A stretch of DNA of 32,000 nucleotides, from assembly GCF_000803625.1 (NCBI RefSeq), contig NZ_CP007496.1, positions 270,001 through 302,000 on the forward strand, in the 5' to 3' direction. This document shows positions 1-19,372 of the stretch, piece by piece. This stretch comes from Candidatus Nanosynbacter lyticus (GTDB taxonomy: Bacteria > Patescibacteriota > Saccharimonadia > Saccharimonadales > Saccharimonadaceae). The notes below the pieces were generated by a model. That model saw only the letters and a list, made by a program, of their open reading frames with translations. It made no database searches and was not told the origin of the DNA. The position numbers were made by a program, and so were the translations under genes. Each line of letters opens with the position of its first letter. Positions within the stretch are counted from its first letter, which is position 1.

Positions 1-758
1 GCGAGGGCGAGGCGGTGGAGCTGCGCGGCCGTAACGGCGCCGGCAAGACGACGCTGATTCGGATGTTGTTGGGGCAGCGGCGAGGTTCGGACTCCAGTCT
101 CTCTGGCAAGTCGATGGTTTCGCGGACGGTGTTGCCGGACGCATTCGACTTGGAGGAGACGGCTGGAAGTCGAACCGCGGCAAGCGCTCCGCAGTCCTCC
201 GCCAGAGCACACTCTTCGCTCAAATCTCCACCGGAGATTTTTCGCAAGCGTTCGGCTGAAACGTCCGCTACTCGCGAACGTTCCACAGTCTCTGGCGTAG
301 AAGGTGTCGCACCTGCCGCTCCCATCCTTTACTCCGGCAACCTCTTCCTTGACCCGCAGGTGCGGGTGGGCGTGTATGAGCAAGAGATTGATGAGCGGTA
401 TTTGGCGGATCCGCTGCAGGCGTCGATTGAGAAGTTGTATCTCAGCCGCGACCTGCCGATTTCTGATACTAAGATTCGCCAACTACTGGCTGACTATTTG
501 TTCACCGAAGCCGATCGGATGACGCCGCTGGCTCGCCTGTCGGGTGGCCAAAAAGCGCGCTTTCAGATTATCGCTATGCTAGCAAATGACCCGCAGCTGC
601 TGATTTTGGATGAGCCGACCAACCATCTTGACCTGCCGAGCATCGAGGAGCTGGAGACGGCGCTGGCGAAATATTCTGGCGCTATCCTGTACGTTAGCCA
701 CGACAATTATTTCCGCCAAGAAATCGGCGGCGAGGTCGTGCAGATTGGCGCAGCATAA
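1..758 (+). CDS. ABC-F family ATPase, C-terminal ABC domain (5' end cut by window edge)
   Basis: Reading frame is open to the window start. Walker A GRNGAGKTT, ABC signature LSGGQKARF, Walker B LLILDEPTNHLD and H-loop YVSHD are present, with no TM segments. About 80 aa of Ser/Ala/Arg-rich sequence sits between Walker A and the Q-loop region. Confidence 0.85.
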   Translation, partial: EGEAVELRGRNGAGKTTLIRMLLGQRRGSDSSLSGKSMVSRTVLPDAFDLEETAGSRTAASAPQSSARAHSSLKSPPEIFRKRSAETSATRERSTVSGVEGVAPAAPILYSGNLFLDPQVRVGVYEQEIDERYLADPLQASIEKLYLSRDLPISDTKIRQLLADYLFTEADRMTPLARLSGGQKARFQIIAMLANDPQLLILDEPTNHLDLPSIEELETALAKYSGAILYVSHDNYFRQEIGGEVVQIGAA

Positions 759-8107: not shown

Positions 8108-8878
8108 CTAGTAATCGGATAGAAATGATTTTATAGAACCCATTCCTTTCCTGTATAGCAAGGATCCTTCTTGTTCTGAGACAATTTCACAAAGAGGCCG
8201 TACGAAGAATTCTCTAAATTGGTAGCCCGTAATCCCTTGTCTTACGAGGTCTCTATAATAAATCTCCATAGTTCTGTAAACCACGTCACCTTCATCCAGA
8301 CTTCGAACTGATCTTTGGTCATCTATTACTAGTGTGTCTTTGTGGCTACGTATATGTTTAGGGTCAAATGTTGCACATATTAATCCGTAAGCGCCCAGAA
8401 TTTTGGTTATTTCTAGCAATCCGCTAAGACATTCTTTTGCTTTTTCGTCGTCTGCTTTTCTGCCACGTGTAATATCAAATTTATCATAATAACTAGCACT
8501 ATCGGGTGCGGGACTCCAAACAACAATACTAGAACCCAGTACTCCTAGTGCTTTAATGACGCGCACTCGAGATTGTTCTGAATTAAGTTTTGTTACCTCT
8601 TGTGATCTCTCTCTTATCTTGTCTAGTTCATAAGGGTTAAGGTAAGGATCAGAAGAGAAGTCGACTGCTAACTGGTCACCGTTTGGCAATATTAGGATTC
8701 CAGGTGTTTTTGACTCGTCGTCTTTTATCGTTTGTGTGTCATTGCTGATTACTATTCTTGATTCTGGAGTTAATTCTTCAGGTGTTTTATGAAATAAAGT
8801 TATAGTATTATCCGTAGGAAGTTCTTCATAGTCGTTGCTCTCTGGCAGGTATATCGCTTCAGTAGGTAAATCTAACAT
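8108..8878 (-). CDS. Hypothetical protein (256 aa, acidic disordered N-terminus)
   Basis: Long ORF in a visibly AT-rich segment between the atp terminator and dus. TGG-TATAAA lies 7 nt upstream of the ATG, with no SD. No recognisable domain. Confidence 0.6.
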   Translation of the reverse strand: MLDLPTEAIYLPESNDYEELPTDNTITLFHKTPEELTPESRIVISNDTQTIKDDESKTPGILILPNGDQLAVDFSSDPYLNPYELDKIRERSQEVTKLNSEQSRVRVIKALGVLGSSIVVWSPAPDSASYYDKFDITRGRKADDEKAKECLSGLLEITKILGAYGLICATFDPKHIRSHKDTLVIDDQRSVRSLDEGDVVYRTMEIYYRDLVRQGITGYQFREFFVRPLCEIVSEQEGSLLYRKGMGSIKSFLSDY

Positions 8879-8900: not shown

Positions 8901-10031
8901 CTATATATCTTCAAGTATCTGGCGAACTTCGTCTGTATTTGTGGTATGCATCAACTGTTCACGCAGTTCTTTGGCGCCGTCAAAGTCGCGGATGTAGATT
9001 TTGAAGAAGCGTTTGAGGGTTTCATAGGGGCGGCTGAGGGTTGGTTGGTAGCGGTCAAAGAGGTCGAGGTGGTAGTGTAGTAAGGCGATTAGTTCAGATT
9101 TGTGATGAATAGTTGAACCATCCTCTGCCTCGGAGTACTCTTTACGGGTGGCTTCGCCAGCCCGTGGCGTTCGGCTGACGGGGCTTGACGTGTCCACCGC
9201 AGCCCCCAATTTAGCGTACGTGTTGCCCATCTCTCGGGTATCGTCATAAAATAATCCGGGACCCGCTAAAGCCAGCCCAGATTTTTTCTGAGATACCGCT
9301 CGAGATGCTCGAAAACAAAACGGATCGCTAAATACTCCCCGCCCGATCATGATGCCGTTGAGGCCTGGGTGGGCTGCAAATAGTTCTTCGCCGTGGGCAC
9401 GGTCGCGGATGTCGCCGTTGATGGTTAGTAGCGTCTGTGGGGCGATTTCATCACGCAGTTTAATGATATCGTCGATGAGCTCGTAATGCGCCGGGACTTT
9501 ACTCATCTCCTTTTTGGTGCGCAGGTGGATGGTCAAATTAACTATGCCTTGCTGCAAAATAGTTGTCAGCCACTCTCGCCATTCGTCAACATACGTATAG
9601 CCTAACCTAGTTTTGACGCTGACTGGTAACCCGGCAGTTTTAGCGGCGGCGATGGCGGCAACTGCTATGTCGGGCTGGCGGATCAGTGCTGCGCCACCTG
9701 ATTTGATGGCGGATTTGGCGGGACATCCCATATTGATATCAATTCCGTTAAAACCAAGTTCCGCGCAGTGCTTCGCGAAAGCTTCCATGTCCCCTGGCTC
9801 ACCACCCCAGATTTGGGCGATCAGCGGATGTTCGTCGTCTGTTTTAATCAACCGTCCAGCGATAGCCTTATCGCCAGCATGCACCCAGCCGGTGGCATTG
9901 GCAAACTCGGTGAAGAACACGTCGGGTGCGCCTGCCTGTTTCACGACATGACGAAACACCACGTCAGTGACGGCTTCCATGGGCGCCAAGATGAAAAATG
10001 GCTGCGGTAAATCATTCCAAAATGATGTCAT
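8901..10031 (-). CDS. tRNA-dihydrouridine synthase (Dus family)
   Basis: Motifs FILAPMEAVTD and GIDINMGCPAKS (catalytic Cys) indicate a TIM-barrel Dus. I place the start at ATG 10031 because the track start 10067 lies inside the upstream terminator stem, and TGA-TAAAAT lies 7 nt upstream of 10031. The protein contains an extra Ser/Ala/Gly/Thr-rich insertion of about 55 aa. Confidence 0.9.
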   Translation of the reverse strand: MTSFWNDLPQPFFILAPMEAVTDVVFRHVVKQAGAPDVFFTEFANATGWVHAGDKAIAGRLIKTDDEHPLIAQIWGGEPGDMEAFAKHCAELGFNGIDINMGCPAKSAIKSGGAALIRQPDIAVAAIAAAKTAGLPVSVKTRLGYTYVDEWREWLTTILQQGIVNLTIHLRTKKEMSKVPAHYELIDDIIKLRDEIAPQTLLTINGDIRDRAHGEELFAAHPGLNGIMIGRGVFSDPFCFRASRAVSQKKSGLALAGPGLFYDDTREMGNTYAKLGAAVDTSSPVSRTPRAGEATRKEYSEAEDGSTIHHKSELIALLHYHLDLFDRYQPTLSRPYETLKRFFKIYIRDFDGAKELREQLMHTTNTDEVRQILEDI

Positions 10032-10047
10032 CTCTGTTATTTTATCA

Positions 10048-10085
10048 CAAAAAGGAGAAAACCCCATCTCGTCATTGAGATGGGG
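10048..10085 (-). terminator. Intrinsic terminator ending the upstream RNA locus
   Basis: The minus strand reads CCCCATCTC-AATGAC-GAGATGGGG (9-bp stem, 10085->10062) followed by TTTTCTCCTTTTT. Confidence 0.75.
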
Positions 10086-10297
10086 TGTGGCGGGCTCAAG
10101 CGGTTCTGCTCGGAATCGTCCTCTGCGTTGAGGATGACTCTACGAGTGAATCTCGCGAACCCGAAAGTTGGAAAACATCAATACTTCCACGTGCCGGCTC
10201 ACGTTGCTAGGCGTCGTTGTCTAGCGGGGAAATATTGATGAACCTGAACGCCGCTAGGCGCTTTCGGCGTTGTGTCCCAGGTTTTTCGATTGCCGGA
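10086..10297 (-). ncRNA. Unclassified, densely structured RNA (~210 nt) between the tRNA-like element and the terminator
   Basis: Several long helices pair by eye: AACCTG/CAGGTT plus AACGCCG/CGGCGTT, a 13-bp helix closing two hairpins, and GGTTC/GAACC closing two hairpins. There is no credible ORF. The segment is bounded by an encoded CCA on the 5' side and an intrinsic terminator on the 3' side. Confidence 0.4.
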
Positions 10298-10372
10298 TGG
10301 CGGACATGGAGGGAGTCGAACCCCCTATCCAGCCTCTATCTAGAGATAGAGGGGTTTCCGATTTACATGTCC
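10298..10372 (-). ncRNA. tRNA-like element (acceptor stem + T arm + encoded CCA, no anticodon arm; tmRNA-TLD-like)
   Basis: The minus strand reads GGACATG TAAATCGGAAAC CCCTCTATC-TCTA-GATAGAGG CTGGATA GGGGG-TTCGACT-CCCTC CATGTCC G CCA. It has a perfect 7-bp acceptor stem and a canonical T-loop, but one 8-bp helix with a tetraloop replaces the D and anticodon arms. Confidence 0.55.
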
Positions 10373-10422
10373 CTTGATTCTTTCCCGGATTACCGGCTGG
10401 GGAATCAGACCCAGGGGCAGGC

Positions 10423-10569
10423 TTAAGCCTTTTTGCCGCAGTTCGGGCAATGGAATTTCCATGACTTAAGCTTCGAGGGGTCCACGTAGAAAACGCTTCC
10501 ACATTTACTACAGGTTTTCATTGTAGTGTACAGACCCGTGGGGGTGTTCTTTCCATAATATTTGAACAC
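10423..10569 (-). CDS. Small zinc-ribbon protein (48 aa from GTG; core 32 aa from ATG 10521)
   Basis: Two CxxC pairs, CSKC...17 aa...CPNC. The SD GAGGTG (10580-10575) lies 5 nt upstream of GTG 10569. The longer 68-aa track ORF has no SD. Confidence 0.5.
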   Translation of the reverse strand: MFKYYGKNTPTGLYTTMKTCSKCGSVFYVDPSKLKSWKFHCPNCGKKA

Positions 10570-10667
10570 CGTCTCACCTCTTTCCTGAAAGAAAAGAGCC
10601 GACCTCCCAACTGTGCTCCTAGAGAGCACAACTTAGAAAAGTCAGCTCCACTAACAAAGCGTTTATT

Positions 10668-10696
10668 ATAATAACACTAACTATAAAAAAATGCAA
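10668..10696 (-). promoter_or_regulatory. Putative promoter for the zinc-ribbon ORF / tRNA-like RNA transcript
   Basis: TTGCAT (10696-10691), 17-nt spacer, then TGT-TATTAT (10673-10668). It lies immediately downstream of the helicase stop codon. Confidence 0.45.
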
Positions 10697-19297: not shown

Positions 19298-19372
19298 TGG
19301 GACGTCGCCAAGTGGTAAGGCACTGGGTTTTGGTCCCAGCATTCGCAGGTTCGAATCCTGCCGTCCCAGCCA
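19298..19372 (+). tRNA. tRNA-Gln (anticodon UUG), CCA encoded
   Basis: Full cloverleaf: acceptor TGGGACG/CGTCCCA (U1:A72, G73), D arm GCC-AAGTGGTAA-GGC, anticodon arm CTGGG-TTTTGGT-CCCAG, T arm GCAGG-TTCGAAT-CCTGC. It is very close to the E. coli tRNA-Gln layout. TGT-TATAAT lies at 19269-19277. Confidence 0.95.

Follow-up and report, generated by a model that had tools for sequence, protein, structure and literature searches.

An anticodon-less tRNA-shaped element conserved upstream of dus in Saccharibacteria, predicted to be one module of a small-protein/noncoding RNA unit

What could a bacterium do with an RNA that has the acceptor stem and T arm of a tRNA but no anticodon? The question is raised by TM7x (Nanosynbacter lyticus), an oral epibiont that serves as the cultivated model of the Candidate Phyla Radiation (CPR). 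In the 32,000-nucleotide (nt) stretch of the Candidatus Nanosynbacter lyticus genome analyzed here (contig NZ_CP007496.1, positions 270,001 to 302,000; hereafter, the window), an earlier reading of the letters without database searches (the sequence-only reading) had proposed, upstream of the gene dus, a self-contained tRNA-like element with an encoded G73-CCA and no anticodon arm. Its layout was likened to the tRNA-like domain (TLD) of transfer-messenger RNA (tmRNA) with the mRNA-like domain missing. On the minus strand, positions 10372 to 10298 match that quotation exactly and read GGACAUG / UAAAUCGGAAAC / CCCUCUAUC-UCUA-GAUAGAGG / CUGGAUA / GGGGG-UUCGACU-CCCUC / CAUGUCC / G / CCA.

The element, 75 nt long, combines an acceptor stem of 7 bp with a canonical T arm and the encoded G73-CCA but has no anticodon arm. 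Its minimum free energy (MFE) structure (-29.6 kcal/mol; z = -3.1) consists of the acceptor stem, a hairpin of 8 to 10 bp, and the T arm; equally good folds were obtained for 2 of 200 shuffled element sequences. A strict structural scan for a perfectly paired 7-bp acceptor with C74, together with a T stem of 5 bp and a loop of the TTCGA type, found two sites in the window, namely, the element and a genuine tRNA-Gln gene at 19298 to 19372. Dinucleotide shuffles of the window gave a mean of 0.045 such sites, with any site at all in 9 of 200 shuffles. ARAGORN, and Rfam at its gathering thresholds, did not call the element when run on the window and reported the tRNA-Gln alone.

A protein-anchored scan gave 80 species-level loci, all from Candidatus Saccharibacteria/Nanosynbacter. 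The gene order was the same in 78 of 78 informative loci: a UvrD/PD-(D/E)XK helicase gene, a gap of 612 to 1,973 nt, and dus. The element was base-for-base identical across 10 near-identical strain contigs. A covariance model that constrained solely the acceptor (7 bp) and T (5 bp) stems gave 67 matches, spread over 63 of 81 sources and located without exception in the helicase-dus gap and on the dus strand, and its sole match in the window was the element itself (63.4 bits). Among the 57 distinct sequences, 99.0% of stem cells were paired, versus 86.4% in shuffles, and double-sided changes were seen in 9 of the 12 pairs (106 cells), a result reached by none of 500 shuffles; such alignments are biased toward the founding structure of the model, a bias that was partly offset by a sequence-only alignment and by a test within groups of identical body sequence. 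Pairing in slid registers was just 43 to 65%. Within the identical-body groups, each stem change kept pairing (e.g., U6-A67 to U6.G67 to C6-G67), and the covariation is therefore not just inherited from different source tRNAs. Across all 215 sources, 115 of 123 distinct elements had perfect 7- and 5-bp stems; one T-stem mismatch was found in 8 and one acceptor mismatch in 7 of the 123. Compensatory change in relatives, at the same place upstream of dus, is what the sequence-only reading had looked to for support, and these comparisons confirm the predicted 75-base anticodon-less tRNA-shaped RNA as real and conserved.

Conservation was unevenly distributed over the element. Near-invariant were G1:C72 (55 of 57 distinct sequences), G2:C71 (54 of 57), a purine at position 73 (56 of 57), and C74 (57 of 57). 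The body, by contrast, ranged from 23 to 57 nt and could not be aligned between the element classes that we distinguished. Class A, the type of the window (70 to 83 nt), has a single capped hairpin and G73. Class B (71 to 79 nt) combines G3.U70 with A73 and often has a 7-nt anticodon-like loop, and class B' (about 71 to 74 nt) has G2.U71. Class C (90 to 95 nt) has a true D arm and a long capped stem without an anticodon loop, and a class B element often follows it at a distance of ~210 nt. Class E (62 to 76 nt) occurs with class D (102 to 108 nt), which has the acceptor stem and T arm of tRNA-Gln. In the D/E clade (L056 and L070 to L094), the 102- to 108-nt elements lie in a separate unit just upstream of dus (e.g., L092, 3735 to 3836); they read UGGGAUG...CAUCCCA-G, with a D-arm-like hairpin and a long branched stem in place of the anticodon arm. 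Two elements bracket a ~210-nt RNA segment in several lineages. No tRNA-like element was found in four species (L034, L044, L045, and L055), where a different, unrelated structured module of ~200 nt without a T arm fills the slot after GGGCGTCCGTCCGCCCC.

The bases that would determine aminoacylation also varied. The A3:U70 pair singled out by the sequence-only reading is present in the window, but it is polymorphic: in contigs L154 and L185 the element of the window differs by the single change A3>G, giving G3.U70-G73-CCA. Pair 3:70 was A:U in 26, G.U in 21, and G:C in 10 of the 57 distinct sequences, and with position 73 taken into account the combinations were A:U with G73 (24 of 57), G.U with A73 (21 of 57), and G:C with G73 (9 of 57). 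The G3.U70 forms carried A73 in 21 of 21 cases. The features that had suggested a tmRNA-like identity are thus not conserved as a set, with three kinds of 3:70 pair and either G or A at position 73. CCA was encoded by 12 of the 57 elements, while both genuine tRNA genes inspected encode it.

Is the element a tmRNA? Its likeness to the tmRNA TLD is real but weak. Both combine an acceptor stem and a T arm with a GG-bearing, D-loop-like linker that forms no D stem, and both place a single helix at the P2 position. When run permissively, the tmRNA model of Rfam aligned end to end (positions 1 to 374) with its middle deleted, scoring 17.7 bits (cutoff, 47; E = 8e-5), which bears out the proposed layout of a TLD without its mRNA-like domain. 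A tetraloop, and no mRNA-like domain, closes the helix at the P2 position. The best-scoring relative, of class B, reached 36.2 bits, again below the cutoff. A full-length or permuted tmRNA was rejected, since ARAGORN and Rfam (RF00023 and RF04321) see TLD-like ends alone: ARAGORN reported no tmRNA in 1.66 Mb of loci, and the permuted model RF04321 gave no match. There was neither a missed 5' strand nor a tag reading frame, the downstream candidate frames being broken by insertions or deletions in class A and class B lineages. The alanyl-tRNA synthetase (AlaRS) identity set, G3.U70 with A73, is replaced in the window by A3:U70 with G73. Lacking the tag domain, the alanine identity, and a score above the curated cutoff, the element is not a member of the tmRNA family, and the view that it is no ordinary ssrA stands. 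Other differences from a tmRNA TLD are that the element is internal to a longer predicted transcript, that its identity bases vary by lineage and strain, and that it is missing in four species.

The closest approach to tmRNA was seen in class B. The 3' half of these elements (CGCGGGUUCGAyUCCCGCCACAUCC-A-C) equals the consensus for tmRNA, and genuine phage tmRNAs have an identical one (L224, standard, 96 bits; L223, permuted, 78 bits). A partner protein is also present in the genome. The sequence-only reading had raised the question of a genomic smpB, and an intact gene (158 amino acids [aa]; PF01668) was found at L215 3157 to 3633 on the minus strand, ~2.5 kb past the left edge of the window and ~13 kb from the element. 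An NCBI record under the name Candidatus Nanosynbacter lyticus, 100% identical to this SmpB, is mislabeled "single-stranded DNA-binding protein." The ~52 kb examined of the ~705-kb genome, which reach past both ends of the window, contained no ssrA, and none lay beside smpB here or in relatives. Because smpB is intact, a true ssrA is expected, and a canonical copy is likely elsewhere in the genome.

Nor is the element a tRNA, as a single capped hairpin replaces both the D and the anticodon arms. It shares with the tRNA family (RF00005) the acceptor stem, the T arm, and the elbow GG, and some relatives pass the cutoff of that model (class C, 43 bits; L075, 30.2 bits). Unlike tRNAs, however, the window copy has no anticodon arm, and the 7-nt loops of relatives mutate freely. 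ARAGORN assigned arbitrary anticodons to the elements (Ala, Val, Arg, Leu, Phe, Ser, Trp, SeC, or "???"). Those called "tRNA-Ala(UGC)" have 3-bp D stems and two anticodon-stem mismatches, and a nearly identical element (L135) has UAC for UGC while retaining G3.U70 and A73. Since a change from UGC to UAC would be intolerable for a decoding tRNA, the anticodon-like loops are best regarded as relics. Mislabeled elements include L022 3755 to 3825, L050 3754 to 3825, and L023 3572 to 3643, among labels such as SeC(tca), Arg(tcg), Trp(cca), Leu(taa), and Ala(tgc). Automated annotation of metagenome-assembled genomes of Saccharibacteria therefore inflates tRNA counts and can suggest spurious opal suppressors. 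A derivation of class C from tRNA-Ala is withdrawn as a firm claim, because its UAGCUC..GAGC D arm is generic.

Several other identities were considered and set aside. RNase P RNA, signal recognition particle RNA, and 6S RNA were rejected: the motifs GGAAAGUCC and CAGAACC occur here in different structures, and no Rfam match was obtained at E values of <=1 to 10. No Rfam family represents the element, the conserved RNA downstream of it (block 3, below), or the whole unit, and a literature search on tmRNA, SmpB, and tRNA-like RNAs in Saccharibacteria and the CPR found nothing on this locus.

Rather than a stand-alone gene, the element appears to be one module of a unit of ~630 nt, in which one promoter-like site and one terminator flank a small-protein ORF (open reading frame), the element, and a conserved 3' RNA (Table 1). 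We infer that the region from promoter to terminator is transcribed as one unit. The predicted order is promoter, 5' hairpin, Shine-Dalgarno sequence and 48-aa ORF, two hairpins, leader, element, structured RNA, rod, and terminator. The statement that no ORF explains the segment needs qualifying accordingly: the overlapping mechanical ORFs are indeed unconserved, but a genuine ORF of 48 aa terminates 50 nt upstream of the element.

Table 1. Features of the predicted transcription unit and of the tRNA-like element (window coordinates)
Feature	Coordinates	Strand	Content or supporting observation
Block 1	10574-10696	-	Promoter-like site, long 5' hairpin, Shine-Dalgarno sequence
Promoter-like TTGCAT-17 nt-TATTAT, start of 5' block	10668-10696	-	Proposed by reading; in a block 83-95% conserved; not flagged by simple consensus scan
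Long conserved 5' hairpin of transcript	10595-10649	-	Predicted fold of whole intergenic region; inside block 1
Shine-Dalgarno sequence AAGAGGUGA, 4 nt ahead of GUG start	10574-10582	-	GAGGT/AGGAG motif kept before small ORF in most loci
Small ORF, zinc-ribbon protein of 48 aa in window (MFKYYGKNTPTGLYTTMKTCSKCGSVFYVDPSKLKSWKFHCPNCGKKA)	10423-10569	-	Codon-position bias, invariant Cys
Block 2 with leader	10373-10414	-	Two small hairpins and A-rich leader adjoining element
Block 2 hairpins CUGGG-UCUGAUU-CCCAG and CCGG-UAAU-CCGG	10385-10414	-	In nearly all lineages, with any element class
A-rich unpaired leader GAAAGAAUCAAG, directly 5' of element	10373-10384	-	Near-invariant in alignments; left cassette breakpoint
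tRNA-like element	10298-10372	-	Between leader and lineage-specific RNA
Acceptor stem, 5' strand GGACAUG	10366-10372	-	Sequence, MFE fold, covariation
D-loop-like linker UAAAUCGGAAAC with GG	10354-10365	-	GG in first 16 nt of body in 57/57 distinct relatives
Capped hairpin CCCUCUAUC-UCUA-GAUAGAGG in place of D and anticodon arms	10333-10353	-	MFE fold
T arm GGGGG-UUCGACU-CCCUC	10309-10325	-	Covarying T-stem pairs; T loop TTCGAYT in 43/57
Acceptor 3' strand CAUGUCC with G73 and CCA	10298-10308	-	C74 in 57/57, encoded CCA in 12/57
Lineage-specific structured RNA (conserved 3' flank, hairpin, three-way junction)	10176-10297	-	77-84% identity in 10 related loci
Block 3, irregular rod-like hairpin (GGGUUCGCGAGAUUCACUCG...CCGAGCAGAACCGCUUGAGCCC)	10092-10162	-	In all lineages; right cassette breakpoint
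Strong intrinsic terminator, 10-bp stem and U tract	10049-10086	-	Conserved with covariation
dus promoter-like extended -10 TGTGATAAAAT, putative promoter	10039-10049	-	Conserved in most loci; dus ATG at 10031

The entire intergenic gap folds well beyond shuffled sequences (z = -7.8), and comparison with relatives revealed three conserved blocks with variable segments between them. In block 2, the first stem covaries (CTGGG/CCCAG, CTGGC/GCCAG, and TCGGC/GCCGA). In block 3, the outer helix covaries, and the RNAalifold consensus is a rod, not a tRNA-like fold. All lineages have block 3, which was also present in at least 120 metagenome contigs; it matched no Rfam family and was not found among viral contigs. 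The idea that it is a second tRNA-like or acceptor-CCA module was rejected, because its consensus fold is that of an irregular rod and because the deepest clade lacks the CCA found after it. In all, ~210 nt of RNA separate the CCA of the element from the terminator hairpin. The deepest clade has a second transcription unit between the terminator and dus, and L020 and L026 have whole protein genes there; the RNA unit is therefore independent of dus. The TM7x genome is 94% coding, and its intergenic regions are short (PMC10768705). The gap is likely functional, because in such a genome a persistent unit of ~0.6 to 2 kb carries a covarying module, a small protein, and a rod.

The mechanical ORF for dus begins at an ATG at 10067, inside the terminator, whereas the called gene (376 aa, minus strand) begins at 10031. 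An ORF antisense to the element (10217 to 10426, plus strand), which reads "...RESNP..." across the T arm, is almost certainly spurious, and the gene calls of some assemblies include an antisense ORF of 62 aa at the tRNA-like element. Immediately 3' of dus, a gene at 8108 to 8878 (minus strand) encodes a 256-aa protein without a Pfam match, and its synteny with dus is kept in all strain contigs.

The small ORF has the marks of a coding sequence. Substitutions in the 48-aa zinc-ribbon ORF are skewed to third codon positions, with synonymous changes exceeding nonsynonymous ones; between L070 and L081, 22 of 26 differences fall at third positions (20 synonymous versus 4 nonsynonymous codons). The four cysteines are invariant across clades in which the DNA can no longer be aligned. 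The third-position bias and the invariant cysteines argue that the ORF is truly coding, and the pattern of substitution indicates that the family in the window is under purifying selection. The small ORF (~45 to 60 aa) nevertheless varies by lineage, with at least eight unrelated families including that of the window; at the equivalent position in L015 to L094 we observed zinc ribbons, DnaJ-like CxxCxGxG proteins, and helical hydrophilic proteins. None matched a known family apart from generic zinc ribbons, and for the protein of the window these matches were below the cutoff; the protein database contained none of these families. That protein had no homolog in the protein collection, nor did an exact look-up find one. 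A remnant of a TnpB/omega-RNA locus was rejected as an explanation, the subthreshold Cas12f/TnpB zinc-ribbon match being a generic zinc-ribbon signal.

Comparison of two loci suggests how this variety arises. Intergenic positions 1 to 446 of L015 and L037 are 100% identical, small ORF included; identity falls to ~50% at positions ~447 to 558, which correspond exactly to the element and its trailing hairpin; and it returns to 93 to 100% from the start of block 3 onward. The element has thus been exchanged as a cassette of ~110 nt, for which blocks 2 and 3 serve as homology arms. Element class and small-ORF family assort independently, and L010 carries a class C element although its ATP synthase epsilon protein is the same as that of the window. 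Logan/ENA contigs often end at the borders of the element (L215 stops 11 nt short of it, and L002 to L004 start 157 to 160 nt upstream of dus), which suggests that an individual oral sample can contain more than one allele. Natural competence, known in Saccharibacteria (PMC10187176), would provide a mechanism for the exchange.

Related RNAs were also seen in phages. The IMG/VR phage contig L225 (~491 to 600, minus strand) contains an anticodon-less element in which GGGUGUG is followed by a body of 55 nt, a T arm, CACAUCC-A, and a terminator, and L226 (8716 to 8852, minus strand), also from IMG/VR, contains a 137-nt tRNA-like element with large insertions. The complete phage tmRNAs of L223 (permuted) and L224 (standard) have the acceptor stem GGGUGUG/CACAUCC, as in L225. 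Neither the 3' half of the element of the window nor block 3 was found in 2.9 million viral contigs. A phage attachment site was rejected, as the viral matches of classes B and C are phage tmRNAs or tRNA-like genes, not Saccharibacteria DNA.

A function for the element has to be sought in light of a covarying structure in constant synteny, a modular architecture with cassette swapping, and a coding ORF, all of which can be read from the sequences compared here. Our tentative proposal is that the element could well be a tRNA-like module for RNase P processing and RNA stability, embedded in a longer transcript and derived from the tRNA/tmRNA-TLD lineage. Among the options listed by the sequence-only reading, the best fit is a handle for processing of the downstream RNA; a repurposed tmRNA and an aminoacylatable minihelix are possible but weaker. 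The element has the determinants of RNase P- and RNase Z-type recognition, namely, a 12-bp acceptor/T stack, a T loop-GG elbow, purine 73 with C74, and an unpaired 5' leader. From the conserved shape, these determinants, and the leader, a cut by RNase P at G1 would be expected, and a 3' tRNA-processing activity would trim at or after positions 73 to 76. Three products would result: an upstream small-protein mRNA ending in the two block 2 hairpins, which would protect it; a structured RNA from the downstream part, whose 5' end would be defined; and a CCA-ended by-product of ~75 nt. Selection would keep only what tRNA-processing enzymes read, and the body would drift freely because any tRNA-shaped module would serve. 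Whole modules would be exchanged by homologous recombination between conserved flanks; the cassette breakpoints, which fall exactly at the leader and at block 3, fit natural competence, and the paired elements around a ~210-nt segment fit a punctuation role.

Known systems offer partial parallels. The mascRNA of MALAT1/MEN-beta and the tRNA punctuation of organellar and bacterial polycistronic RNAs are tRNA-like processing elements. As in those systems, a nondecoding tRNA-shaped module lies between RNA segments and keeps only the RNase P/Z determinants, a small CCA-ended by-product is predicted, and two elements flank a segment in some lineages. The present case differs in being bacterial and tied to a small-protein mRNA, with a cleavage that is predicted, and we know of no mascRNA or tRNA-punctuation system with hypervariable modules exchanged as cassettes. 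Jakobid mitochondrial tmRNA is a TLD-only form whose layout matches that of the element; its G3.U70 is not found in the window but is present in a third of the relatives. The tmRNA TLD is further approached by the class B relatives, with G3.U70, A73, and the consensus 3' half, and by the presence of SmpB in the genome. Plant viral tRNA-like structures are 3' terminal and have pseudoknotted acceptor stems, and YrlA, a bacterial Y RNA, ends in a Ro-binding stem and has no CCA end. They resemble the element in attaching tRNA mimicry to a larger RNA; unlike the viral structures, however, the element has ~210 nt before the terminator hairpin and an ordinary acceptor helix. Neither layout was seen at the element, and no such Rfam match was obtained. 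Overall, the element would act most like the mascRNA and punctuation elements, and it looks most like the tmRNA TLD.

Several observations weigh against a processing module. In the four species without the element, processing, if needed, must differ. Processing alone would leave unexplained the AlaRS set of class B (G3.U70 with A73 in every case) and its tmRNA-consensus 3' half, and it would not account for near-invariant G1:C72 and G2:C71 beside freely varying pairs 3 to 7. In addition, the deep divergence of coexisting cassettes could reflect diversifying selection and not neutrality.

One alternative, which we consider possible but unlikely, is an aminoacylatable, nondecoding minihelix. Synthetases that ignore the anticodon would charge the released CCA-ended RNA: AlaRS the G3.U70 forms and possibly seryl-tRNA synthetase those with G1-G2-A3/G73, which we take to resemble the acceptor identity of tRNA-Ser. 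The charged RNA would be a TLD-only partner of SmpB in rescuing ribosomes, as for jakobid mitochondrial tmRNA, or a nontranslational amino-acid donor. The end-to-end alignment with the tmRNA model (up to 36 bits in class B), the 3' half shared with genuine phage tmRNAs, the constant association of G3.U70 with A73, and the near-invariant first two pairs all agree with charging. So do the encoded G73-CCA of the window together with the G3.U70 strain variants, and an smpB ~13 kb away with no ssrA in the sequence examined or next to smpB in relatives. The identity set flips, however, between strains and between otherwise identical loci, and 45 of 57 elements lack the encoded CCA that the genuine tRNA genes inspected have. 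Absence from four species is awkward for an essential SmpB partner, the anticodon-like loops mutate freely while G3.U70 stays, and a normal ssrA probably exists in the part of the ~705-kb genome beyond the ~52 kb examined. More doubtful still is the bolder version in which the elements form a dedicated family of nondecoding aminoacyl-acceptor RNAs in oral Saccharibacteria, a bacterial TLD-only class charged with alanine in the G3.U70/A73 forms and with some other amino acid in the G1-G2-A3/G73 forms, which would serve in tag-less SmpB/EF-Tu rescue or in aminoacyl donation and would have its identity switched by cassette swap.

A further alternative is a conflict or recombination cassette, in which RNA and small protein diversify under frequency-dependent selection and the RNA might be a decoy or antidote against enzymes attacking the acceptor ends of tRNAs, or a tRNA-like recombination or attachment site. 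At least five element classes and at least eight ORF families are swapped within conserved flanks and assort independently, the replacement breakpoints are sharp, assemblies break at the edges of the element in a manner indicating polymorphism within samples, and phage contigs L225 and L226 carry short tRNA-like elements with the same acceptor. We nevertheless regard this explanation as improbable. No integrase, toxin, nuclease, or defense gene was found in the locus; the small proteins match no defense or phage family beyond generic zinc ribbons; the searches of viral contigs returned neither the sequence of the window nor block 3; and introgression among coresident competent species accounts for the swaps without selection.

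We give a similarly low probability to the proposal that the elements are functionless, decaying duplicates of tRNA-Ala or ssrA whose stems remain intact through recent copying. Degenerate cloverleaves with Ala-type loops (UUUGCAA), a nearly identical sequence with UAC, the sharing of acceptor stem and T arm between class D and genuine tRNA-Gln, the loss of the element in four species, and the single stem mismatches reported above are what decay would leave. Yet tRNA pseudogenes decay, whereas here the stems are upheld by compensatory change, even inside identical-body groups; the great majority of distinct elements keep perfect 7- and 5-bp stems despite bodies diverged beyond alignment; the T loop, GG, and C74 are held constant; and the site is retained in a 94%-coding genome. 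Least probable of all is a cis-regulatory tRNA mimic that binds a tRNA-recognizing protein, such as Dus, and so controls dus or the small ORF: the constant position upstream of dus in all informative loci, the U and GG of the D-loop-like linker, and the terminator between element and dus are compatible with it, but dus has its own conserved promoter-like element past the terminator, a separate unit (deepest clade) or protein genes (L020 and L026) can intervene between the RNA unit and dus, and conservation is lowest in the linker and body, the very parts to be read by a Dus enzyme.

The locus thus appears to hold a previously undescribed unit that combines a small protein with noncoding RNA and includes a family of anticodon-less tRNA-shaped modules. 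Processing and charging are both testable, as TM7x transcriptomes exist and Saccharibacteria are transformable, and the natural A3:U70 and G3.U70 alleles of one element amount to a ready-made AlaRS identity experiment. Should charging prove true, the element would be the first free-living bacterial analog of a TLD-only tmRNA. If processing is instead its role, the element would provide bacteria with a clear case of a punctuation signal derived from tRNA in which decoding has been lost, and it would show how much evolutionary freedom such an RNA gains once its shape alone matters.

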